The notes: generated by a model not told the origin, from the sequence alone. A stretch of DNA of 64,000 nucleotides from Candidatus Metalachnospira gallinarum (GCA_904387325.1 CAJFLG010000007.1:4069-68068); one strand, 5' to 3'; counted from the stretch's first letter, positions 35,202 through 45,684 are shown. Program-made: numbers and translations.

Positions 35202-35206
35202 CACAC

Positions 35207-35232
35207 CCCCTCCTATTCGGAGGGGATTTTTT
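35207..35232 (+). terminator. Rho-independent terminator after the Nudix gene
   Basis: CCCCTCC-TATTC-GGAGGGG followed by ATTTTTT. Confidence 0.65.
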
Positions 35233-35414
35233 CAAAATATAGGAAAGCAATAGGAAAAATATTGTTCCTTTCCATTATATATTGTATAATATAGTAAAAG
35301 TATTCTATTATATCAAAATTTTTGAAATAAAATATCGTTATTGTTACCCTGAATCCGAAGATCTGCGGTTCGCTGTGTATAACAGTATGCAGCTATTAAG
35401 TGAGAGTGAGATGT

Positions 35415-36278
35415 ATGAAAAAAATTTTATTTCTTCTTATACTACTGACAGCGGTAAATTTATCATCCTGTTCAGGCAAACCGAACAGTAATAGCGACCT
35501 TGTCCCGAATGTTGAAGCCGTTGAGCTTGGTTCATTCACCGAATATGATCTGATAAAAGAGCTTCAGACGATGGATAACGATAGGCTTTCGGAACTTGGC
35601 TATACGGATAATGAAATCAGCGAAATATACTCCATTGATTTTAAAAAAATCGTTGAGGCCGCAAAAGAAAAACGATATGAAACCTTAAAAAACAGCGGAT
35701 ATACAGATGAGGACATTAAAGTCATTTACGGTGATGACATTGACGCGGCAGCCAGGACCTTATCGGCAGAGTTGATTTGCCGTTGTGAAATAACCGGCCT
35801 CAGCTACAGTCCCCTGATGGACAGGACATACGCTGACGTTGAATTTGCGTGGAAATGGAACAAGTGCCCTATGATCACATTTACCGACATTATAGGCATC
35901 TATGTTTCAAACCGGATGTATATAGATAAATCAAAAGTTTTTGTAAGATATTATGAGGATGGCGACTGGGACTCATACTCTCAGACCAAAACATATTGTT
36001 TTGAGCCTGCCGGCGTTACAAGCCTTGCGGAATGTTCATTTGATATTAATCTATTCAAGTTCCCAAGCGTTCAAAAATCGGAGGTCGCTCTGGAAGGCAA
36101 GGCGTTATGCCGCTGGAAACTTGATGAAAAATTACAGGACATTTATGTCGTAGCCAAGTATGGACACTCCGTAATTCCATGTTCCCCGGATTTGGCTGTG
36201 TCTGACGGTAATTTAGTATTTGCTCCATATATCGGTGTGTCGGAGGCAGGAATGGATTTAGATTACATAAAAAAATAA
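35415..36278 (+). CDS. Hypothetical lipoprotein
   Basis: MKKILFLLILLTAVNLSSC is a signal peptide with a lipobox. The mature part has no recognisable family. Confidence 0.6.
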   Translation: MKKILFLLILLTAVNLSSCSGKPNSNSDLVPNVEAVELGSFTEYDLIKELQTMDNDRLSELGYTDNEISEIYSIDFKKIVEAAKEKRYETLKNSGYTDEDIKVIYGDDIDAAARTLSAELICRCEITGLSYSPLMDRTYADVEFAWKWNKCPMITFTDIIGIYVSNRMYIDKSKVFVRYYEDGDWDSYSQTKTYCFEPAGVTSLAECSFDINLFKFPSVQKSEVALEGKALCRWKLDEKLQDIYVVAKYGHSVIPCSPDLAVSDGNLVFAPYIGVSEAGMDLDYIKK

Positions 36279-36306
36279 ATTCTATTTTCACATTTTAAAT
36301 TAGCAA

Positions 36307-36356
36307 AACCGAGGTCAAGCATCCACAGCGGATTCCAGCCTCGGTTATTTTTTTAT
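36307..36356 (+). terminator. Terminator between convergent genes
   Basis: AACCGAGG ... CCTCGGTT followed by ATTTTTTTATTTTTT. Confidence 0.55.
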
Positions 36357-36426
36357 TTTTTATATGAAATTCACTTTATTTTGTACGCAGATTTTTTCAT
36401 ATAGTTTATTAACTTTTCAGTCTATA

Positions 36427-37386
36427 TCATTTTATAATGTATCGGTTCAGCGTCTCATAAACGATATCTCCGTTTGCGTATACGGTCGTTACGTCAAACA
36501 CTTCCCTGCCGACAGCCGGAACAAAATGCCTGTCAACTCTCTGGCTTATGACCTCACGGCTTGAGCCGTCAGCTTCGAGCGCCATTTTCTTGAGTTCATC
36601 CTCGGTAATGTTTCCATCGACTACAGCTTCACCGGCGGCATTGTAAATTTCTCCGCCGATGGCCGTTATTTCCACCCGGTCATTGTATACGGCCGCGAAA
36701 TATCCCAAATTCGTCTCTATTTCGTCCACCGTATATTTATAAATAACAAACCGTTCGGCATCGGAGTTTTCTTCCGTCTCCACTATCTTTTTAGTAAAAT
36801 TATCCGCCGAAAACTCCGCGTCCATCGTTTTTATGCAGTTTTCCACATATTTATCGTCAGCGCATCCTTCCGTTTGGAAAACATCCGATTTTTCCTTTGA
36901 AATGTTCAAAATCACGTTTCCTTCGGCAAATGATACGCCGATATTTTCAACGCCGTAATATTTCAGCGCTGTCTCAACGGGGATATAAAGCCTGTCGCCG
37001 ATTATTACATTTCTTACTTCCTGCGCTTCTCTTTTGCCGTTTACGTCGGAGAAGCTCTCGCCGGCCGCCGATGATATGGTAAACGCTTTGCCGTCCTCGT
37101 TTCGCGCGGCGGTAAACAGCTTTCTTTCGCCATCCCAGGAAATATCGGATTCGTCATAGTTTCCGCCGGCATACAAGTCTATATATCTGGCCGGTATAAG
37201 GACATTTCCGTTTTCATCGGTCACAGCTCCTTCTCCATCGTGACCCATATATATCCCGTCAATATATACGCCCGCCGTACCGGGAACTATGGTCGTTCCA
37301 CGCTCGGCGATATATGCCGCGTAGGCGCTGAACGGCGTAAGCGAAACCAAAGTTAAGGCGATGGCTATAACTTTTAACCGTCTCAT
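36427..37386 (-). CDS. Hypothetical secreted protein
   Basis: 319 aa. Signal peptide MRRLKVIAIALTLVSLTPFSAYA. AGGAGG RBS. A central segment (GDRLYIPVETALKYYG) resembles copper-amine-oxidase-N/stalk-type domains. Confidence 0.6.
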   Translation of the reverse strand: MRRLKVIAIALTLVSLTPFSAYAAYIAERGTTIVPGTAGVYIDGIYMGHDGEGAVTDENGNVLIPARYIDLYAGGNYDESDISWDGERKLFTAARNEDGKAFTISSAAGESFSDVNGKREAQEVRNVIIGDRLYIPVETALKYYGVENIGVSFAEGNVILNISKEKSDVFQTEGCADDKYVENCIKTMDAEFSADNFTKKIVETEENSDAERFVIYKYTVDEIETNLGYFAAVYNDRVEITAIGGEIYNAAGEAVVDGNITEDELKKMALEADGSSREVISQRVDRHFVPAVGREVFDVTTVYANGDIVYETLNRYIIK

Positions 37387-37398
37387 ATCCGTCCTCCT

Positions 37399-38175
37399 TT
37401 ACAGAGCAAAGGTCTGTCCCATTATCTCTACACTGTCAATATTGTTTATATCGACCATATCGTCGAAATTGATTATCGTCACTGCCGAACCGTCGCTTTC
37501 AGTTGAAGTTGACTTGTCCGTTGTCTGCGAAACCTCGTCTCTGCCGCCGTCCTTATAGTTAAGGGCTACGCTTCCGAGATCTGCGTCATTCTCGCAGTTA
37601 TATTTTAAAACTATGGAAGTCTGGCCTACAACGCACTCTGTAAGCTCTATACCGTCTATCTTCGCTCCGGCAACATTTACCGCTGCCGCCGTCTTATCGC
37701 TTCCGACAACGCAGTTGAGCATCCAGCTTCCCTCGGCGCAGCTTACAAATTCTTCGCCCTCAAAATATCCGTAGTTCTCAAGCTCAAGCCAGTAATTGCC
37801 CGCCGGAACACCTCCGTCAAAGCTGTACTCCAGCTTCCAAACATCGTCCTGGCCGTTGGACGAATAAAGCTCGGAACCGATAAATTCGCATACGGCGTCC
37901 CCTCCGTCGGCGCTCAAAAGAGAAACTTTCTCAAATTCCATATCCGTTGCCGGTCTTTCGGGCTCGGGAAGGCTGACCTGATACATAATCACCATTTCAT
38001 CATCTTCTATGCCCGCGCCGGTTACTTTAACATTGAAATTTATCGGCACGTTTGAAACAGCCTCCTGCGCCTCCAAGTCTGTTTTTTCGGTGTCTTCGTT
38101 AGTCCCGGAGCATCCAGAAAGGCATAACGCCGCAGAAAATCCGATTATCGCCGCTGTGTTTAAAAATTTCTTCAT
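37399..38175 (-). CDS. Hypothetical lipoprotein
   Basis: MKKFLNTAAIIGFSAALCLSGC lipobox. AAGGAG lies 8 nt before the ATG at 38173-38175. Confidence 0.6.
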   Translation of the reverse strand: MKKFLNTAAIIGFSAALCLSGCSGTNEDTEKTDLEAQEAVSNVPINFNVKVTGAGIEDDEMVIMYQVSLPEPERPATDMEFEKVSLLSADGGDAVCEFIGSELYSSNGQDDVWKLEYSFDGGVPAGNYWLELENYGYFEGEEFVSCAEGSWMLNCVVGSDKTAAAVNVAGAKIDGIELTECVVGQTSIVLKYNCENDADLGSVALNYKDGGRDEVSQTTDKSTSTESDGSAVTIINFDDMVDINNIDSVEIMGQTFAL

Positions 38176-38245
38176 AGCTAACACTCCTTGATCTGAAATA
38201 TTATATGATTTTCACGTTAAAAGTTCAGTAATATTACTTGATTTA

Positions 38246-38307
38246 ATTATCTCACAACAATATTTTGATTTCAATATTTTCCAGATAATCTTAATAATTA
38301 TTTAAAA
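38246..38307 (-). promoter_or_regulatory. Candidate promoter A plus 39-bp upstream element (copy A)
   Basis: Minus strand: TTGAAA (38269-38274), 17 nt, GATAAT (38246-38251) preceded by TGA. The -35 box is the end of the 39-bp repeat at 38269-38307. Confidence 0.45.
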
Positions 38308-38405
38308 TATTTGTCAGAATTTTAAATAATTTACACGATAATCAGCCAAAAAACAGCTTCCCGAAGCGGCTCCGCTGACATTCTCATACCGTTTCCTGCG
38401 CCACG

Positions 38406-38467
38406 ATTATCGCATGGAAAGACAGGAGTTTCAATATTTTTCGGATGATCTTAATAAATATTTAAAA
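38406..38467 (-). promoter_or_regulatory. Candidate promoter B plus 39-bp upstream element (copy B)
   Basis: Minus strand: TTGAAA (38429-38434), 17 nt, GATAAT (38406-38411). The repeat at 38429-38467 is 35/39 identical to copy A with no indels, exactly 160 bp away. Confidence 0.45.
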
Positions 38468-38529
38468 AGCTGCTTATAAAAATACAGCGCCCTGTTATTA
38501 AGCAGGACGCCTTATTTCTGGTATTTACT

Positions 38530-39393
38530 TTAACTTTCTTCCTCCGGAAGCACTTCAAAAATTATTGCTTTGCCAAATGATATATCAAGTTGGTCCATAC
38601 CTACTGTTACATCAATGTAATCCTTTCCTTTGTATGAAAAGGTCCAAGAGCTTGTATCATCGTAATGATGCGGCTGGGAATAATAGTTCCACGCCCGCCG
38701 TTCCGCCTCAGTCATAAGCTCCCTGCTGAATATTGGCCTGTGAATATTGAGTTCTGCCGCTTCTTCATCCGACAGGTCTCCTAAATACTCCATATATTCT
38801 TCATGCACTTCTGTTCCTTCTTTAATGGGCAGCATTTTGAGCCTTTCGCTTACGTCCGAGATATGAAGCTGCATATTTTCATCGTAATAGCTGTAATATC
38901 CGATGGCATCGGTCAAATCTTTCAGTCTTATATACAGCGTCCCTTCACAGTTAAAACCGCTTTCAAAATATTCGCTGTTTTTAAGCGCCGTAATCTCCTT
39001 ATCGCCAAGATAGACCGGCGTTTTATTTTGGTTTACCGTAACGTCTCTCGCGCCGAATCTTATTACATCGGCTTTATTTTCCGTCTCCGTTCCGATTATG
39101 GAAATAACGTTTTTTCCGCCGTCATAGATCACCGTTCTGCCAAGCATTTCCGCCACATTCCTCAGGGGAACATATATCTTTTCTTTGCTGTAGAACACAT
39201 CGCAGTTTATTCTGTCCTCGCCGTACCATATAGTAAGCGGGATCATATTTACGACTGAGCTCCTCTGCACTGAATACTTTTCATATTGCTCCATGGAAAG
39301 GCCATAGGTCTGTTCCCCGGCCTGTGCCGTATAGGCTGAGCCAATGAGCATAATTGATATTAACAGGGCGCATTTTAATTTTGAAGCTTTCAT
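38530..39393 (-). CDS. Hypothetical secreted protein with a copper-amine-oxidase-N (stalk)-like domain
   Basis: 287 aa with a signal peptide ending AQA. KIYVPLRNVAEMLGRTVIYDGGKNVISI resembles the stalk domain. Starts 13 nt after the upstream gene. Confidence 0.6.
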   Translation of the reverse strand: MKASKLKCALLISIMLIGSAYTAQAGEQTYGLSMEQYEKYSVQRSSVVNMIPLTIWYGEDRINCDVFYSKEKIYVPLRNVAEMLGRTVIYDGGKNVISIIGTETENKADVIRFGARDVTVNQNKTPVYLGDKEITALKNSEYFESGFNCEGTLYIRLKDLTDAIGYYSYYDENMQLHISDVSERLKMLPIKEGTEVHEEYMEYLGDLSDEEAAELNIHRPIFSRELMTEAERRAWNYYSQPHHYDDTSSWTFSYKGKDYIDVTVGMDQLDISFGKAIIFEVLPEEES

Positions 39394-39406
39394 TTTTGTA
39401 CCTTCT

Positions 39407-41284
39407 TTATGATTTTAATATAAGGCGATCTATCCAATAAATGTATTCTTTGCATCCATAAACCTCGTTATCAGTACCCGGGTCTATGGTATAATCAGTT
39501 TTGACAACAAGGCTATATCTTCCGTTGACTACTTCCTTCGAGATCTCCTGTTCCGTTATCTCATAACCGGCAAGGATTTCATCCGCAGCCTCTTCCTTAG
39601 CCTTTTCAATATCCTCATCCGAAACTGGTACTGTATATTTTTCTAAATATCCGAAATCATTGTCGGTATTTTCATTTTCGCTGAAATAAATAACTTCTCC
39701 GTCTCTTACTATAGCGTAAAATCCTTCCCTCGCGTCAAATCCGTTTACATATCTTTCATAGTAAACCTGAAGTATGTCATTGTCTCTTTCTTTGGTGACT
39801 ATTTCATAATCATCTAAATCAACGGCGTAGTTTTCAACTATATACTTGTTTATCTGTGATAAATCATTCTTCGACGCCCTTATGCCTGTGTAGTTTTCGC
39901 TCACCGCTTCCGCGTCTATGTTAACGGGCATTGCCGCGCTCCTTGATATGGGAGTTCCGTTTCCCGGCCATATAATGCAGTCCTCATTGCCGTAAATTTC
40001 CCAGTTTGTAACCTCATTACCCGGATATTTTTTATCGGCGTAAAGAGCTGACTCATATACGGTATATCCGTCTAATAAACGCTCAAAAAAATCCTCATTC
40101 CATCCTGTAAGAGCTCCGGTTTCCACGTCTTCGACCCAGCCGATCGCGCACTCTGCTCCATTGTCCGCTGCGTATTCAGGAAGATTTTTCTTGGATGAGC
40201 TCTCCGGTTCATCCGCAGTTGCGCAAGCCGCAAAAACCATAAGTCTGCTTTCTATTTCCTTTCTGCTAAGTCTGACAAACTCAAATTCTTCCGAATCATG
40301 TTCTACATTCCTTACATTAGTGCTCACGCCGCATACTATCGGTTCGTCATCGTTATTATTAAAGTAAAATTTTATGTGAGTTGGCGCTCCGTGTCCGTCC
40401 AAAAAAACTACTGAGCTTCCAAGCCTGTCCGTGCCGTCATCATTGGTGTCATCCAACTCATCATAAGTTGGCTCATCAATATATGCGGCATTATAATAAT
40501 CCGTATCTCTAAGCAAATTCCTGATATGTCTTGCCGCTCCGGTTGTATCAATGTCGTCATTGTCCGGATATTTATTTGAATTTCCGGGATCATAACTTCT
40601 AAAATCGGCTCCGACCGAAAGAGCATATTCTTCCTCATTATAAAATCTTACTTTGATTTTATATTCTTCCGTATCGTCATAGTCGGAACTTCCCGCGCCT
40701 TCAACTCTGATATAATAATACTCATCCGGATTTACAAAAGCGTATATCCTTTCAGTTTCGCCATCCGAGCCGTCCGTACTTTCATCTATCACCGTTTTTG
40801 ACGGGCTGATCAGATAAAAATCATAGTCCTCGGTATCGGGAACTAACAATCTAAAATATGCCTGTCCCATCTCAGAAAACTTGATTTTATAGTAATCCAC
40901 ATCGTCTCTGTCTTCTATGGTTCCATACACATATTCGTCTAAATAGAGTTTGTCCGCGTTTTTTATTGTATCATTTGGTTCATACTCGTCATAAATAACC
41001 TGAGTTTCTATTTCATTTTCCTCATCCTCAAGCACCGACTTGGGCACGCTAAGTTTGGGCTTTACATATCCGGCTTCTTTATTTTTCTTCGACTCTTTGA
41101 TATACTCGTCGATTTTTGATTCCAGCTCATAAACTTCATCATCTGTTAGTCCGCTGTCATCAATTTTTTCAACCTCAGCTATCTCATCCAGATTATCTTC
41201 ATTGTTTGCTTGCGCAAATGCTGTCATTGGCAGCATTGACACAATACATAAAGTAGCTATACCAGCTTTTAATAATTTTTTCAT
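39407..41284 (-). CDS. Secreted protein: PPC (pre-peptidase C-terminal)-like domain plus a putative clan-CD cysteine peptidase-like module
   Basis: Signal peptide MKKLLKAGIATLCIVSMLPMTAFA. YEPNDT...GTIEDRDDVDYYKIKF is the PPC-type pattern. SSVVFLDGHG and RLMVFAACAT are strand-His-Gly and strand-Ala-Cys motifs 56 residues apart. GGAGGA lies before the ATG at 41282-41284. Confidence 0.6.
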   Translation of the reverse strand: MKKLLKAGIATLCIVSMLPMTAFAQANNEDNLDEIAEVEKIDDSGLTDDEVYELESKIDEYIKESKKNKEAGYVKPKLSVPKSVLEDEENEIETQVIYDEYEPNDTIKNADKLYLDEYVYGTIEDRDDVDYYKIKFSEMGQAYFRLLVPDTEDYDFYLISPSKTVIDESTDGSDGETERIYAFVNPDEYYYIRVEGAGSSDYDDTEEYKIKVRFYNEEEYALSVGADFRSYDPGNSNKYPDNDDIDTTGAARHIRNLLRDTDYYNAAYIDEPTYDELDDTNDDGTDRLGSSVVFLDGHGAPTHIKFYFNNNDDEPIVCGVSTNVRNVEHDSEEFEFVRLSRKEIESRLMVFAACATADEPESSSKKNLPEYAADNGAECAIGWVEDVETGALTGWNEDFFERLLDGYTVYESALYADKKYPGNEVTNWEIYGNEDCIIWPGNGTPISRSAAMPVNIDAEAVSENYTGIRASKNDLSQINKYIVENYAVDLDDYEIVTKERDNDILQVYYERYVNGFDAREGFYAIVRDGEVIYFSENENTDNDFGYLEKYTVPVSDEDIEKAKEEAADEILAGYEITEQEISKEVVNGRYSLVVKTDYTIDPGTDNEVYGCKEYIYWIDRLILKS

Positions 41285-41382
41285 AAGTTCCTCCAAATAA
41301 ATTCATTATATTGATTGCGTTAATCCGATATATCTGTAGCATTTTTAGGTTAAATTTTTTGAGTCGACTGCCATAAAAATAG

Positions 41383-41435
41383 TACATATATACTCGGTAC
41401 ATATGTATTATACACTGTTTTTATCTATTTGTCAA
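41383..41435 (-). promoter_or_regulatory. Consensus sigma-A promoter plus BlaI-type operator in front of the secreted-protein operon
   Basis: Minus strand: TTGACA (41430-41435), 17 nt, TATAAT (41407-41412). This is followed immediately by TACATATGTA (41398-41407) and the TACTCGGTACA core (41391-41401). Confidence 0.55.
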
Positions 41436-41448
41436 TATGATCTAAATA

Positions 41449-42723
41449 TCAATGAGGACATTTTTCAAAGCTTTCTCTTTTATAAACATCACCTGTCTCT
41501 GTTCTTCCGCATTCCTCGCAAAGTTTAACATGATAATATGTTGTCATACATGAACCATCGCTATATTTTTTATGCTTTTTTTTGAGTGTATTTACCCATT
41601 TATGTATATGCTTTTGCTCTATACTGTCCTGTGTCTCCTCTGATACATTGTTATCAGCTTCAATCAAGTTTTCAGCTTCATCAACTGTAAGAACATCAAA
41701 TTCTCCTTCTCTTACAATATTCTTATCACTCCCAAACACCCCATAAACGGCATAATCAGCCTCTTTAGCCGCGTACCCTGCTCCGCAGAATACGCAAAGC
41801 GCCATAAAAGACATTGCCACCGTCGCCATCTTTGTTCCTTTTTTCTTGTTTTTCATAATCAATTCCTCCCTTCTTCTCATACTGTTCTTTCGCCTTAAGG
41901 CCAAAAAGGACGCCAAAACATTCTTGTATTTGATATTTATTTCGGCCACCTTTATAAGCAGGTTCGCGTAGAGCCTTCTTGTTTCCTCGTCAAAGTCCTG
42001 GTTGAGCGTTTCGTCGCAGTCGGCCTCTGTCCAGAAACAATAGCCCTTTTTGATTTTATAAAAAAATGGATTGAACCAGTTTATACCGTTCAATATTTCA
42101 ATGAAGATTTTTAAAAAAGCGTCGTTTTTTTCTATATGCGTCAGCTCGTGCATCAGGATAAGCCTTATCTCTTTATCGCTTAGAATATTCTCGAGTATAA
42201 CCGGAAATACTATGTATTTTCTTCTTACCCCTATGGTATATGGCTGTGCAGCGCTCTTGCTCATCAAAAGTATGACTCTTTCGCTCTTTTCCATAGACTC
42301 AAATATTTCCGCTGTTTTACCTACAGTCTGAGCGGAATATTTTTTTATATCGTGCAAAGTTTTTTCATAAATAATAAGTGTTTTAGCCACATATAATATA
42401 ATTCCTATAGTCCATATCATTGACACTATTCTTCCTGCTTCTACTCTATCAATAAATGTGTAGAATTTCATCGCCGCTTCACTGTCAACAATTATGTCTG
42501 GCGCATATTCACTGCAAATAATGCTGCTGTCTATTCCTTCTATAAGGAAATAAATCATATATGAAGGAACGACAAAAGACGCAAGTCCAAATCCAATAAG
42601 CATTTTTACGAAAGCCGCTGAAGTATACTTATATACTATTTTTTTGATCAACAGTATGATCGCGCAGGTAATGCTTCCGGTAATGACCGAATATGCCGCG
42701 AAGATGAAAATATTTTCCGTCAT
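41449..42723 (-). CDS. BlaR1/MecR1-family M56 peptidase signal transducer with a short Cys/His-rich extracytoplasmic tail
   Basis: 424 aa. TM segments, the HELTHIEKND zinc-protease motif, and a final TM followed by a 105-aa tail carrying HIH, C, CEEC and CPH. ATGA overlap with the repressor gene. Confidence 0.85.
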   Translation of the reverse strand: MTENIFIFAAYSVITGSITCAIILLIKKIVYKYTSAAFVKMLIGFGLASFVVPSYMIYFLIEGIDSSIICSEYAPDIIVDSEAAMKFYTFIDRVEAGRIVSMIWTIGIILYVAKTLIIYEKTLHDIKKYSAQTVGKTAEIFESMEKSERVILLMSKSAAQPYTIGVRRKYIVFPVILENILSDKEIRLILMHELTHIEKNDAFLKIFIEILNGINWFNPFFYKIKKGYCFWTEADCDETLNQDFDEETRRLYANLLIKVAEINIKYKNVLASFLALRRKNSMRRREELIMKNKKKGTKMATVAMSFMALCVFCGAGYAAKEADYAVYGVFGSDKNIVREGEFDVLTVDEAENLIEADNNVSEETQDSIEQKHIHKWVNTLKKKHKKYSDGSCMTTYYHVKLCEECGRTETGDVYKRESFEKCPH

Positions 42724-43109
42724 TTGTTTTTATTCACCCATTCTTTTAATTCCTCAAGGTCTTTTTCGCTTAATTCTTCATCCTTGGCAAAGGCTGAAAC
42801 AAAGTTTTTGATGGAACTGCCAAAGAATGTTTCAAGAAATCTTTTTCCCTCCTCTACTCCGTATTTTTCCCTGTCAACGGTAGGGTAATAGTAATTTGTT
42901 ATCCCCTTTTTCTCGTGGGTCGCAAAGCCCTTTTCCTCAAGTCTGTCCAAAAATGTGGAAACTGTCCTTGTCGCCCACTTGGTTCCCTTCGCCTCAAGGA
43001 TGGAACAGGCTTCTCTGACGGTAAGGCCTTCGTCGCCCTTATCAAGTAAGATGCCTAATACTTTCTCCTCTGATTTTGACGCTGTTTTAACTTCGCTTTT
43101 TTTTCTCAT
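42720..43109 (-). CDS. BlaI/MecI/CopY-family winged-helix transcriptional repressor
   Basis: 129 aa. The SEEKVLGILLDKGDEGLTVREA...WATRTVSTFLDRLEEKG pattern is typical of the Penicillinase_R family. Confidence 0.9.
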   Translation of the reverse strand: MRKKSEVKTASKSEEKVLGILLDKGDEGLTVREACSILEAKGTKWATRTVSTFLDRLEEKGFATHEKKGITNYYYPTVDREKYGVEEGKRFLETFFGSSIKNFVSAFAKDEELSEKDLEELKEWVNKNK

Positions 43110-43151
43110 AATTCATTCTCCATTCTTTTATAATTAATTTTTTAGTCATTT

Positions 43152-43199
43152 TTGTACTCGGTACAATTATAGTTTATATCTTTTCGGTACATTTGTCAA
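43152..43199 (-). promoter_or_regulatory. Candidate autoregulated blaI promoter with a palindromic operator
   Basis: Minus strand: TTGACA (43194-43199), 17 nt, TAAACT (43171-43176). The perfect palindrome TTGTAC-TCG-GTACAA lies at 43152-43166. A half-site TCGGTACA lies in the spacer at 43184-43191. Confidence 0.5.
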
Positions 43200-43220
43200 T
43201 GAATTTATTAAAAATCCTAC

Positions 43221-43258
43221 AAAAATACCGGCCCCGTCAAATCTGACCGAGGGGCCGG
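43221..43258 (-). terminator. Rho-independent terminator after the enoate reductase gene
   Basis: Minus strand: CCGGCCCC ... GGGGCCGG followed by TATTTTT. Confidence 0.65.
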
Positions 43259-43284
43259 CATACCGTAAATTATTATTGATTATA

Positions 43285-45207
43285 TTAGAAAGCGTTTGCC
43301 TTTGTGAAAGCGTCCTTTGTGGCGTTGTGTATTCTTCCGCCCTTATTGGCGTCGCCAATTACAATGACTCTGTCAAACTCTTTTTCATAGCTTTCAACAA
43401 GACCCTTCTCAGGCGCTACGCCGAGGGAAAGAACAACATTGTCGCACTTGATCTCACTGATCTCTTTCGTGGCAATATCCTCGACCTTTATAAAGCCGTC
43501 GCCAACCTCAAGGAGTTTCGTAGATGTGTGTACCTCTGGCTGGTGAGACATAATGTCGTTGACGATATATTTTCTGATGGGAGGGAATACTCCGGGGCCA
43601 ACGTCACCAAGCATCTCCACCAGAACCATCTGACAGCCCTCGTCTCCAAGCTTTTCGGCTACCTCAAGGCCTGTAAGACCTGTTCCGACTATGGCGGTCT
43701 TTCCGGTGAGTTTTACCTTGCCGAGTATTACATCTTCGGGAATATATGCTTTCTCCACGCCTGGTATGGGAGGATTTACGGGTTTTGCTCCCGTGGCGAT
43801 GAATACTCCGACAGGGTTATAGCTCTTTACCTTTTCAGGCGTAGCCTCAGTATTGAGCGCGACATTAACGCCCGCCCTTTCTACCAGCTTTTTCATTGTC
43901 TTAACGTATTCCGTTATGACATATTTGCCTTTAGCCTTGTCAGCGACATTAAGCGTTCCGCCGAGTTCTCCGCTCTTTTCCATAAGTGTAACATTGAAGC
44001 CTCTCTTCGCTAAAACGATGGCGGCCTCCATTCCTCCGGGGCCTCCGCCGACAACAACGACGGATTTGCCGTCTCCGTCCTCAACGGGCTCCTTATAGAG
44101 GAATTCATATCCAAGACGGGGATTTATGGAACACTCGATAGGCATATCGGCCATAAGTCTCTCACGGCAGTACATGCATCCGATGCATTTAACAATCTCG
44201 TCCGCTCTGCCTTCCTTAGCCTTTTTAACAAACTCAGGGTCAGCGAACTGTGAACGTCCAAGGCCAACGAAATCGCTGATACCTTCCTCAAGAAGCTCCT
44301 CCGCCCAATCAGGATTTTTGATTGTGTTTGTAGCGATAACGGGAATTGAAAGAGCGTCCTTGAAAGCCTTTGCCACATGCTTTTTCCATCCGGGCTGGAA
44401 TGAATAGGGATCGCAGTTAGCGTCTCCGTTCTGGGCGCAGCCGTTGGAAATATTGATATAGTCAAGACGGTTCTCAAGGAACTTAGCTATTTCAAGTCCG
44501 TCATCAAGTGTCATCTGTCCGGGAACCATCTCGTCCCCGCTTATTCTTATTCCCACAACAAAATCAGGTCTTACTGCCTTTCTGATCTCGTCGATGATCT
44601 CCGTGACAAATCTTGTTCTGCCCTCAACGTCTCCGCCGTACTCATCCGTACGTTTGTTGTAATATTTACTGAAGAACTGGGCAATAAGATATGAATGGGC
44701 TCCGTGGAGCTCAACTCCGTCATATCCGGCTTTCTGACATCTTACTGCCGCGTCGACAAATTTTTTCTGTACTGCCTTGATCTCGTCTACCGTCATTTCT
44801 CTGGGAACGGGAGCTCCGGGAGCCGCCGGAACACCGCTGGGAGAAAGGGACTGCCTTCCCGTAAGGGCGGGCTTAGACGTCATTCCGCCATGATGGATCT
44901 GAGCGAATATTTTGCAGTCATATTTATGTACCGCGTTTGTAAGCAGCTCAAGGGAACTTAAATTATAGTCGCTTGCAGCTCTCAGGTTTCCGACCGTAGG
45001 TATGCTGTCGATCTCATCAACGCCGGTATACTCATTGATAATAAGTCCAATTCCGCCCTTTGCTCTTTCAGCGTAATAATCGATCAGTCTTTCTGTGGCG
45101 TTTCCGTGTCTGTCAGCATAGACTGTGCCCATCGGCATCATAACGCATCTGTTTTTAATAGTCAGTCTGCCGATTTTACCCTTTTCAAAAAGTTTTTCGT
45201 AAGCCAT
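43285..45207 (-). CDS. 2-enoate reductase / 2,4-dienoyl-CoA reductase-like flavoprotein (OYE domain, 4Fe-4S, FAD/NAD domain)
   Basis: OYE-like N-terminus (RCVMMPMG...HGAHSYL), a Cys cluster CIGCMYC...C, and C-terminal GGGPGG and GTG Rossmann motifs. AAGGAGG lies before the ATG at 45205-45207. Confidence 0.85.
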   Translation of the reverse strand: MAYEKLFEKGKIGRLTIKNRCVMMPMGTVYADRHGNATERLIDYYAERAKGGIGLIINEYTGVDEIDSIPTVGNLRAASDYNLSSLELLTNAVHKYDCKIFAQIHHGGMTSKPALTGRQSLSPSGVPAAPGAPVPREMTVDEIKAVQKKFVDAAVRCQKAGYDGVELHGAHSYLIAQFFSKYYNKRTDEYGGDVEGRTRFVTEIIDEIRKAVRPDFVVGIRISGDEMVPGQMTLDDGLEIAKFLENRLDYINISNGCAQNGDANCDPYSFQPGWKKHVAKAFKDALSIPVIATNTIKNPDWAEELLEEGISDFVGLGRSQFADPEFVKKAKEGRADEIVKCIGCMYCRERLMADMPIECSINPRLGYEFLYKEPVEDGDGKSVVVVGGGPGGMEAAIVLAKRGFNVTLMEKSGELGGTLNVADKAKGKYVITEYVKTMKKLVERAGVNVALNTEATPEKVKSYNPVGVFIATGAKPVNPPIPGVEKAYIPEDVILGKVKLTGKTAIVGTGLTGLEVAEKLGDEGCQMVLVEMLGDVGPGVFPPIRKYIVNDIMSHQPEVHTSTKLLEVGDGFIKVEDIATKEISEIKCDNVVLSLGVAPEKGLVESYEKEFDRVIVIGDANKGGRIHNATKDAFTKANAF

Positions 45208-45238
45208 TTTTCTTTCCTCCTTAAAATTTATCAGCATA

Positions 45239-45261
45239 AATTGTTATCAATATCAACAATT
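45239..45261. promoter_or_regulatory. Inverted repeat, candidate HxlR operator
   Basis: AATTGTT-N9-AACAATT lies just downstream of a candidate minus-strand promoter (TTGCTT, 18 nt, TAAAAT). It sits between hxlR and the reductase gene. Confidence 0.3.
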
Positions 45262-45333
45262 ACATTTTACAGCATACCCTATATTTTAAGCAAGAACGCA
45301 CTTTTTATATATATAATATACTTTTTGATAGCA

Positions 45334-45684
45334 TCAATTACACGGATTTTCCACACCGGCTTTTTCAAAATACATGATCCCCCACTCCCTTAAGGAAGTA
45401 ATTATCGGGGTAAGGGTCTTTCCCAACTCTGAAAGGGAATATTCTGTTTTCGGCGGAACAACGGGATAAAGGACCTTATTTATAATTCCGTTGGCTTCCA
45501 GTTCCTTGAGCTGACTGCTGAGCATTTTAGGCGTTGCCTGCGGTATAAGCCTTTGTATCTCGCTGAATCTAAGCGTTCCGTTTTTTATTAAATGCCAAAG
45601 TATTATTACTTTATATTTTCCGCCGATTATATCCATTGTGGCCTCAACAGTACAGTTATATTTTCCAAGATCAATCTTTTCCAT
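45334..45684 (-). CDS. HxlR-family transcriptional regulator
   Basis: CTVEATMDIIGGKYKVIILWHL...LRFSEIQRLIP.ATPKMLSSQLKELE is the HxlR signature. The start at 45684 is preferred (GGTGA upstream). The track ORF starts at 45702. Confidence 0.85.
   Translation of the reverse strand: MEKIDLGKYNCTVEATMDIIGGKYKVIILWHLIKNGTLRFSEIQRLIPQATPKMLSSQLKELEANGIINKVLYPVVPPKTEYSLSELGKTLTPIITSLREWGIMYFEKAGVENPCN

Follow-up and report, generated by a model that had tools for sequence, protein, structure and literature searches.

In the canonical BlaI/BlaR1 and MecI/MecR1 systems derepression occurs via proteolysis (PMC9834060; PMC1935004); the scissile bond of Staphylococcus aureus BlaI, N101|F102, lies in the dimerisation domain (PMC9834060), and canonical BlaI and MecI operators are imperfect dyads of 24–30 bp centred on TACANNTGTA (PMC1935004). 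CopY requires RNYKACANNTGTMRNY (PMC7253601), PetRP of cyanobacteria is a copper-responsive BlaI/CopY-family repressor system, and PvmSR of Pseudomonas aeruginosa is another example unconnected with β-lactams. In Clostridium thermocellum, DNA affinity purification sequencing (DAP-seq) and electrophoretic mobility shift assays (EMSA) gave very small regulons for BlaI_0696 and BlaI_1845, consisting of their own operon and hypothetical proteins; their operators are inverted repeats other than TACAnnTGTA, with ordered four-protomer sites at the targets (PMC8457756). CenIR of Clostridioides difficile is a BlaIR pair without a transpeptidase domain, depletion of which derepressed the gene for an exported protein 215 bp downstream by about 500-fold (Kurtz et al., J Bacteriol 2026; PMC13492132); in a survey in the same paper, most proteins annotated as "BlaR" had no β-lactam sensor, and about 6% of M56 proteins carried one (PMC13492132). 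Here we describe a locus in a 64,000-nt stretch of DNA (hereafter the window) from Candidatus Metalachnospira gallinarum (GCA_904387325.1 CAJFLG010000007.1:4069-68068), in which a blaI-like repressor gene, a gene for a BlaR1-type M56 membrane protease and a pair of genes for secreted proteins all lie on the minus strand, and in which one short dyad recurs at two promoters, P1 ahead of the repressor gene and P2 ahead of the secreted-protein genes (Table 1).

The locus resembles the BlaI/BlaR1 and MecI/MecR1 systems of Staphylococcus and Bacillus in having a winged-helix repressor of the family and a dyad on the repressor's own promoter as well as on that of the target (PMC9834060; PMC1935004), in pairing it with an M56 gluzincin that has both HExxH...E and a Ser|Phe autocleavage loop, and in its gene order, which is repressor–protease or the reverse. 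It differs from these systems in that there is no PF00905 sensor, the NCBIfam equivalog scores fall far under their cut-offs, the target is co-directional and downstream rather than divergent, and the output appears to be a secreted protease; an earlier note on this DNA had rightly excluded both β-lactamase and PBP2a. The locus and CenIR both have a blaI-like and an M56 gene in one operon, an M56 protein with a short unannotated C-terminus and no transpeptidase domain, and an exported-protein gene immediately downstream (about 165 bp away here), which in CenIR is the most strongly repressed target. Unlike the 136-aa orphan protein of CenIR, the target here is a predicted 625-aa CHAT-type protease together with a Cu_amine_oxidN1 protein; the M56 protein ends in a defined 4-His/4-Cys domain; and the operator was defined comparatively at both promoters, whereas for CenIR an RNA-seq regulon is reported. 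Like the C. thermocellum BlaI paralogs, this system has an operator that departs from the canonical TACA-centred form (PMC8457756), but its half-sites (GTCTAT-N5 in C. thermocellum), partner and target genes differ, and in that organism DAP-seq and EMSA confirmed the sites. The arms found here are similar to KACAnnTGTA, the CopY box; unlike CopY/CopR, however, the repressor is without the CopY-type C-terminal Cys motif, and unlike the M56 protein, PetP has no C-terminal His/Cys tail, its proposed ligands being conserved Met residues in a loop. Because the M56 protein has no β-lactam sensor, we assign the locus to the non-canonical BlaIR systems; judged by its architecture and shared operator, it appears CenIR-like, having an M56 protein without a transpeptidase domain, an adjacent blaI-like gene and a non-β-lactamase target.

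A conserved dyad at two promoters

The earlier note had drawn attention to an 11-mer, TACTCGGTACA, at 41391–41401 and 43155–43165, to the palindrome TTGTAC-TCG-GTACAA at 43152–43166 around the second of these copies, and to the two promoters, and all of these were recovered as described. The 11-mer occurs exactly twice in the window, and allowing one mismatch added no further copy; P2 is the sole perfect TTGACA-17-TATAAT in 64 kb, and none of 100 shuffled sequences contained one. With one mismatch allowed, the chance mean for the 11-mer was 0.43 and at least two matches arose in 4 of 100 shuffles, so that the counts within the window are weakly significant alone, and the strong evidence is comparative.

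We therefore compared the window with orthologous loci (L003–L015 and L026), which are syntenic with it and whose M56 orthologs range from 96% down to 41% identity. A 25-bp matrix was trained only on L009, L010, L012 and L015, whose BlaI proteins are 61–67% identical to that of the window. When this cross-species matrix was run on the window, the site at P2 (operator O2) ranked first with 31.8 bits and the site at P1 (operator O1) second with 18.8 bits, the third site scoring 2.8; the highest score reached by any of 200 simulated 64-kb sequences was 17.2, and thus even O1 stood above all 200 null maxima. In every lineage with both promoters, each consists of TTGACA, 17 bp, a TAnnnT −10 box, 5 nt and then T(R)TAC-NNN-GTA(Y)A, and the geometry of P1 and P2 is identical in six lineages (the window, L009, L010, L012, L015 and L026); the −35 box and TAnnnT −10 box of P1 are kept in all lineages. 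The intergenic DNA flanking the operators has otherwise diverged among lineages. Within each 10–15-kb locus, matches to TRTACNNNGTAYA without mismatch fall at these two promoters only, the core being the sole such match upstream of blaI in every locus. L003 and L005 belong to the window's own lineage, and in them P1 is near-identical to that of the window, while the layout of P2 is kept with a variant core; the BlaI proteins of the window and L003 are 100% identical, and their O2 cores differ at degenerate consensus positions only. In L026, where BlaI is 63% and the M56 protein 41% identical to those of the window, both promoters (L026:2600-4720) keep the same spacing of −10 box, 5 nt and core, and the gene driven by P2 is a Cu_amine_oxidN1 gene, with the CHAT gene behind it.

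When the arms of all sites were stacked, they gave the half-site TAYAWWTRTAC, in which positions −12 to −2 are high in information, and since the information extends over this range we take the operator to be a dyad of about 25 bp. The orthologous O2 sites are palindromic, and in some species perfectly so, over as much as 35 bp (L010) with the −10 box included; in the window O2 extends to an imperfect palindrome of about 31 bp that also takes in the P2 −10 box. We conclude that the dyad of about 25 bp on both promoters, with half-site TAYAWWTRTAC and a 3-bp centre, is the predicted operator of the system; the 11-mer that had been proposed as the operator core is indeed the centre of a conserved site, but the whole site is the larger dyad. 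Two further elements named in the earlier note were retained in part. TACATATGTA at 41398–41407 is the sole TACANNTGTA in the window, as expected of a BlaI-type box, but it proved to be the promoter-proximal arm of the O2 dyad, and we rejected it as an independent second site at P2. The half-site TCGGTACA in the P1 spacer is present at 43184–43191, and all three copies of it in 64 kb fall within the P1 and P2 regions; extended to the box GACAAATGTAC (Table 1), it is confined to the window's lineage and is absent from L009, L010, L012 and L015, so that it was rejected as a generally conserved operator element.

The sites also follow the blaI/M56 pair, as the earlier note had suggested a comparison of genomes might show: the motif accompanies the pair in other genomes and was not found at homologous protease/Cu_amine_oxidN1 gene pairs with no blaI or M56 gene nearby (L016:6001-8823, L017:6001-8837 and L018:6001-8771), where the CHAT-protease and Cu_amine_oxidN1 genes instead adjoin spoIIE/tilS or ppk/ppx. 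A peptide-pattern scan of GTDB representative genomes with the M56 protein yielded no close relative, only two unrelated Sphingobacteriia M56 genes. A metagenome-wide scan for the degenerate 25-bp dyad gave at least 120 matches, and 119 of those listed lay in loci without relatives of blaI, M56, the protease or the Cu_amine_oxidN1 gene; the commonest matched sequences were (TA)n-like repeats, and among the matches listed only L026 was relevant. This last result, together with the AT-rich, low-complexity character of the 11-mer and the shuffles noted above, is what could be said for regarding its two copies as a coincidence, or as a functionless relic of local duplication. Such an explanation is hardly credible, as the prediction across species, the fixed geometry and the conservation amid diverged flanks oppose chance, and the two sites in the window show no extended identity outside the core, which argues against a recent duplication.

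Table 1. Coordinates of features of the locus, numbered from the first letter of the window
Feature	Coordinates	Strand	Remarks
OYE-type flavin reductase gene, 640/650 aa	43285–45237	−	Upstream neighbour; terminator read at ~43221–43258
Extra box GACAAATGTAC	43187–43197	−	Extends the P1-spacer half-site; overlaps P1 −35; 10/11 half-site consensus positions
Promoter P1 of the blaI-M56 operon	43171–43199	−	TTGACA (43199–43194)-17-TAAACT (43176–43171); 10/12 matches
Predicted operator O1, candidate autoregulatory site, 25-bp dyad	43147–43171	.	Core TGTAC-CGA-GTACA at 43153–43165, 5 nt after P1 −10 box
blaI-like repressor gene, 129 aa	42720–43109	−	PF03965
M56 (BlaR1-type) membrane zinc-protease gene, 424 aa	41449–42723	−	PF05569
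M56 C-terminal tail, 60 aa (residues 365–424), putative sensor	41452–41631	−	4 His and 4 Cys
Promoter P2	41407–41435	−	Perfect TTGACA (41435–41430)-17-TATAAT (41412–41407)
Predicted operator O2, 25-bp dyad	41383–41407	.	TACATATGTAC-CGA-GTATATATGTA; core 41389–41401, 5 nt after P2 −10 box
Conserved 5′-UTR element	41356–41378	−	TTTTT..(A/G)GTCGAC(T/C)..AAAAAATTT (T-run, palindrome, A-run)
First P2-driven gene, secreted, 625 aa	39407–41284	−	Start likely ATG at 41284, preceded by GGAGG
Second P2-driven gene, secreted, 287 aa	38530–39393	−	Starts 13 nt after the protease gene
Intrinsic-terminator-like hairpin	38486–38511	−	9-bp stem with 6 GC pairs, then T-run; P2 unit probably ends here
UTR, untranslated region.

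Repressor, membrane protease and secreted products

The 129-aa protein matched PF03965 (Penicillinase_R) with 92.3 bits against a cut-off of 22.6 (E 3.5e-26), its residues 11–126 covering profile positions 2–114 of 115, and its nearest solved relatives are S. aureus BlaI (1sd4/1xsd) and MecI (1okr/1sax). By this match it belongs, over its full length, to the winged-helix repressors of the BlaI/MecI/CopY family, in agreement with the BlaI/BlaR1-type module proposed in the earlier note. It fell below the NCBIfam equivalog cut-offs for the named subtypes: BlaI_of_BCL (53 bits against 180), CopY_TcrY (47 against 122) and MecI (37–45 against 250). The C-terminal CxC...CxC motif of CopY was not found either, C35 being the only Cys of the window repressor and lying outside its C-terminal third; the L012 ortholog has a lone non-conserved Cys in that third and no CxC motif. 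Across six orthologs neither the recognition helix WATRTVSTFLDR nor the wing GITNYYY varies, though overall identity falls to 61%. Also invariant is Asn102-Phe103, whose residue number is near that of the S. aureus Asn101|Phe102 bond.

The invariance of the DNA-reading elements, which parallels that of the half-site, bears on whether the dyad could instead be bound by some other regulator, either the neighbouring HxlR-family protein, whose gene lies 2 kb upstream, or an unlinked factor. The difference between the centre of the dyad and that of canonical BlaI/MecI operators would suit such a regulator, as would the fact that the link between repressor and site comes from sequence comparison. 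We nevertheless regard binding by another regulator as quite improbable: one of the sites is on the promoter of blaI, where an autoregulatory site is typically found, the motif travels with blaI/M56 and is missing at the protease paralogs that are without them, L010 and L015 keep it although the HxlR and reductase genes are missing from their loci, and the dyad arms resemble the family box TACAnnTGTA.

For the 424-aa protein, the match to PF05569 (M56) reached 103.7 bits against a cut-off of 31 (E 1.4e-29), and a profile of 13 M56 orthologs aligned to S. aureus BlaR1 (8exp) with E 9e-11. In this alignment the invariant residues H192, E193, H196 and E233 stand opposite BlaR1 H201, E202, H205 and E242, and the segment 'lasflalkk' stands opposite 'LSHSFNGKK' of BlaR1, which places S272-F273, with a nearly invariant S272, opposite the autocleavage site S283-F284. 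The penicillin-binding (transpeptidase, SxxK) sensor is absent, as shown by the lack of any PF00905 match in the M56 protein, and NCBIfam blaR1_generic covers the protein at positions 3–318 of 585 only, with 81 bits against a cut-off of 400. By these comparisons the protein is a BlaR1-type M56 gluzincin without the β-lactam sensor. The transmembrane segment that comes after the protease domain corresponds in the alignment to the final segment ahead of the sensor in BlaR1, and the C-terminus should therefore be extracytoplasmic.

At this C-terminus, after a hypervariable acidic linker, lies the putative sensor tail, in which H372, H374, H384, C392, C402, C405, (C422) and H424 are invariant. It is without Pfam annotation; the AlphaFold model of it is a three-stranded sheet with a predicted local distance difference test score (pLDDT) of 82, and a Foldseek search with this model gave no fold counterpart in the PDB and nothing better than E 0.28. 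A profile of the tail matched 561 cluster representatives at E ≤ 1e-3 among 1.84 billion proteins, and in all six full-length matches checked with Pfam the tail was at or near the C-terminus of an M56 protein of 457–554 aa. Two matches have additional domains, an SH3_3 domain in P0228 and a fusion to cupin in P0225. The more distant M56 proteins P0035–P0051 carry a fused C-terminal Cu_amine_oxidN1 domain (PF07833), the domain that is encoded here by separate downstream genes, which suggests that these proteins and the sensor may be functionally connected.

The first P2-driven gene encodes a 625-aa protein with a Sec signal peptide, a PPC/collagen-binding-like domain, a CHAT/caspase-like Cys protease domain and C-terminal beta domains. 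Pfam CHAT (PF12770) gave no match in the window protein; the L010 ortholog, which is 43% identical to it, matched with 26.0 bits against a cut-off of 24. In the AlphaFold model (pLDDT 76) the N-terminal part matches the collagen-binding (PPC) domains of ColG and ColH (template modelling score ~0.8, E 1e-6), and the middle matches SAVED-CHAT 8tl0 (E 4e-5) and gingipain RgpB (E 2.4e-4). Among 14 aligned homologs, H298 (LDGHG) and C354 (FAAC) are nearly invariant; in the homolog P0142, which has 135 member sequences, both are lost, the His motif being replaced by LSGYG and the Cys motif by FAGGRTA. Loss of the two residues together is as expected for a catalytic dyad, and P0142 is probably a pseudo-protease, judging from its motifs. 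The secreted products had been put down as of unknown function, but the main one is recognisable: on the modelled structure, the 625-aa product is predicted to be a secreted CHAT/caspase-like protease with a collagen-binding-like domain. We rejected a role for this CHAT protein of the CBASS or CRISPR type, as PADLOC returned no defence-system match and a Sec signal peptide is present. A Cu_amine_oxidN1 domain (PF07833, E 1e-5) was identified in the 287-aa partner, and the protease/Cu_amine_oxidN1 gene pair is kept in all loci.

Transcription units and variation between strains

The stop codon of the blaI-like gene overlaps the start codon of the M56 gene (ATGA), and the two genes are translationally coupled in all lineages. 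P2 begins 14 nt past the stop codon of the M56 gene. The start of the large secreted-protein gene had been placed at a TTG at 41296 and its promoter 110 nt upstream; the ATG at 41284 is the likelier start, and the distance from it to the P2 −10 box is about 123 nt; the 5′ UTR comprises about 115 nt. The P2 transcription unit had been described as an operon of secreted proteins, which is correct for two genes; beyond them stands the terminator-like hairpin at 38486–38511, and the two secreted-protein or lipoprotein genes that follow it (37399–38175 and 36427–37386) have promoters of their own, in the form of a repeated GGAAAATATTGAAA-17-GATAAT with an extended −10 box at 38406–38434 and 38246–38274. 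Because of these two features a single P2 operon of all four genes was rejected, and a P2 unit of two genes appears most likely from the DNA layout. In its fuller form the promoter-like repeat reads (G)GAAAATATTGAAA-17-TGnGATAAT (38406–38442 and 38246–38282) and lies upstream of a gene for a 261-aa lipoprotein; it also precedes the large protease gene in L003, L004, L005 and L007. Between its two copies, at about 38348–38377, there is an imperfect hairpin with a T-run, and the first copy might yield a transcript of about 50 nt. Further along, a putative lipoprotein gene of 292 aa (35206–36303; open reading frame 35400–36278, plus strand) is present in the window and absent in L003 and L007, where its flanks are contiguous.

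The 5′ UTR of the P2 transcript contains a second conserved element (Table 1), with one match in the window against 0.03 expected by chance, which is conserved in L005, L010 and L015, degenerate in L009 and L012, and absent in L003. It is a palindrome at the level of DNA, with one compensatory change from A..T to G..C between lineages. As an RNA structure it was not convincing, as it would form a weak AU hairpin of −2.9 kcal/mol with one compensatory pair, and it could be the site for another regulator. No RNA family matched in an Rfam search at a permissive E-value over 36000–45500, and hence no riboswitch or leader from that source explains the conserved untranslated regions.

Strains of the window's species differ sharply over a short interval. 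Residues 1–300 of the M56 protein are 99% identical between the window and L003, but the last 110 residues are 59% identical, and nucleotide homology between the two stops exactly at 41379, at the edge of O2, to restart at 41183. Compared with L003, L005 and L007, the region 41183–41800, comprising the tail, P2 with its 5′ UTR and the N-terminus of the large protein, is a mosaic hypervariable block, while BlaI and the flanks of these strains are at least 95–100% identical. In L004, L007 and L008 the P2 −10 box and operator are missing (L004:8276-8316; L007 and L008:8192-8296), and an extra 334-aa Cu_amine_oxidN1 gene directly follows the M56 gene. That of L004 appears to be co-transcribed with blaI-M56, and in L007 and L008 the P2 −35 box is retained, with a terminator-like hairpin, GCTGTAGAGAGATTTCAATCTGTATCTACAGCCTTTT, after it. 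We considered whether each tail type goes strictly with one cargo and rejected this, since L003 and L004 share a tail and differ in the order of the cargo genes and in the presence of P2.

A proposed switch and what it would mean

We think it likely that the locus is a non-canonical proteolytic switch of the BlaI/BlaR1 type that controls a secreted protease in this uncultured Bacillota bacterium. A dimer of the BlaI-family repressor would bind the dyad of about 25 bp; as the core begins 5 nt past the −10 box, the dyad would cover the transcription start. In one reading of its stoichiometry a single dimer would span the dyad, with the inner TAC triplets 1 bp closer than in the canonical operator; in the other, two dimers would occupy boxes 15 bp apart. 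Occupancy of O1 would provide autoregulation of blaI-M56, and occupancy of O2 would silence P2, the strongest-looking promoter in the window, and with it the predicted collagen-binding-like/CHAT cysteine protease and its Cu_amine_oxidN1 partner. Detection of a cue other than a β-lactam by the extracytoplasmic 4-His/4-Cys tail would set off the M56 zinc protease, whose HExxH...E and Ser|Phe motifs are intact, to cut the repressor near Asn102-Phe103 or Ala106-Phe107, and this cleavage would derepress both promoters.

Several observations weigh against this proposal. Since the centre of the dyad is TAC-N3-GTA rather than the canonical TACA-N2-TGTA (PMC1935004), each arm being box-like (TAYAWWTRTA), the assignment of the site to the BlaI-like protein rests on position and co-occurrence, and the window's O1 has a weak outer right arm. 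HMMER places the S. aureus Asn101|Phe102 bond opposite the invariant Ala106-Phe107, so that the aligned position does not hold the P1 Asn of the cleavage site. The P2 −10 box and operator have been lost in three strains of the same species (L004, L007 and L008), from which it follows that the protease gene need not be linked to the switch. At L019:4465-4645, the locus of a distant M56 protein that shares the tail, the repeats are different and no shared site lies downstream of the M56 gene, so that the wiring described here does not extend to the tail family as a whole. That M56 gene is on an element resembling an integrative and conjugative element, with a TraG-type coupling protein and serine recombinases, and its blaI promoter has two direct repeats, ACGACAA(T/A)(G/A)TGTAGTA, which flank the −10 box and represent a different type of operator. 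Finally, the O2 palindrome could also form an RNA hairpin.

This last point raises the question of whether O2 is mainly a terminator or insulator against read-through from blaI-M56, its similarity to O1 being secondary; transcripts from P1 would then form a hairpin followed by a U-run, whereas those from P2 would hold the right arm only and pass. The folding energies are in keeping with this in part, at −11 kcal/mol in the window, −23.3 in L010 (z −7.4) and −21.2 in L003 (z −6.8), and U-runs follow the hairpin in the window (UAUUUUU) and in L010 (UUUUUU). However, the hairpin of the window is ordinary (z −1.4), 15 of 200 shuffles folding equally well, its AU-rich stem was missed by the terminator scan, and the L003 hairpin has no U-run. 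Moreover, termination needs pairing and not a fixed sequence, yet the O2 arms keep the consensus TAYAWWTRTAC of O1, which cannot fold in this way (−3.6 kcal/mol), and termination would not explain why the offset from the −10 box is fixed at 5 nt in both promoters. Termination as the main role of O2 is thus improbable; as the two roles are compatible, an added function is likelier than a replacement, and given the z-score in the window we treat termination as a possible additional role of O2.

The strains without O2 are also in line with a second alternative, namely that the repressor acts as a near-permanent safety lock on the protease operon, as CenI appears to do, and that the M56 protein serves in turnover or in some other role and is not a signal-activated anti-repressor. 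That the tail has no recognisable ligand-binding fold would agree with such a lock, as would the report that no inducing condition could be found for CenIR (PMC13492132). We consider a lock unlikely, because HExxH...E, the autocleavage Ser|Phe and all eight His/Cys residues of the tail are invariant, the translational coupling of blaI and M56 in all lineages counts against it, and retention of the tail in 561 clusters argues for a selected sensory function. We prefer, then, the proteolytic switch.

A bolder extension of the switch, which we offer as speculation of low probability, is that the 4-His/4-Cys tail represents a large undescribed class of extracytoplasmic BlaR sensors, possibly for a metal, redox or a strain-specific ligand, which here switches on a secreted caspase-like protease, and that tail and cargo are exchanged as mosaic cassettes among strains with identical repressors, pointing to diversifying selection by host, phage or competitor. 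If this were true, the locus would be a variable 'sense-and-secrete' module and not a housekeeping envelope circuit.

The locus is a well-supported new example of a type of system that was already recognised, and our understanding of the BlaIR family is unchanged by the finding; what is new is the specific operator, the CHAT-protease output, the widespread His/Cys tail and the strain mosaic. For one BlaIR system unconnected with β-lactams, the results provide a delimited and comparatively validated operator and promoter layout. The His/Cys tail, with its 561 clusters, can be expressed and tested for binding of metal or ligand, and the strains that have the identical repressor with other tails, with O2 variants or with loss of O2 are ready-made mutants. 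For the bacterium itself, the predicted output of the switch is concrete: a secreted protease that is probably relevant to its action on extracellular proteins.

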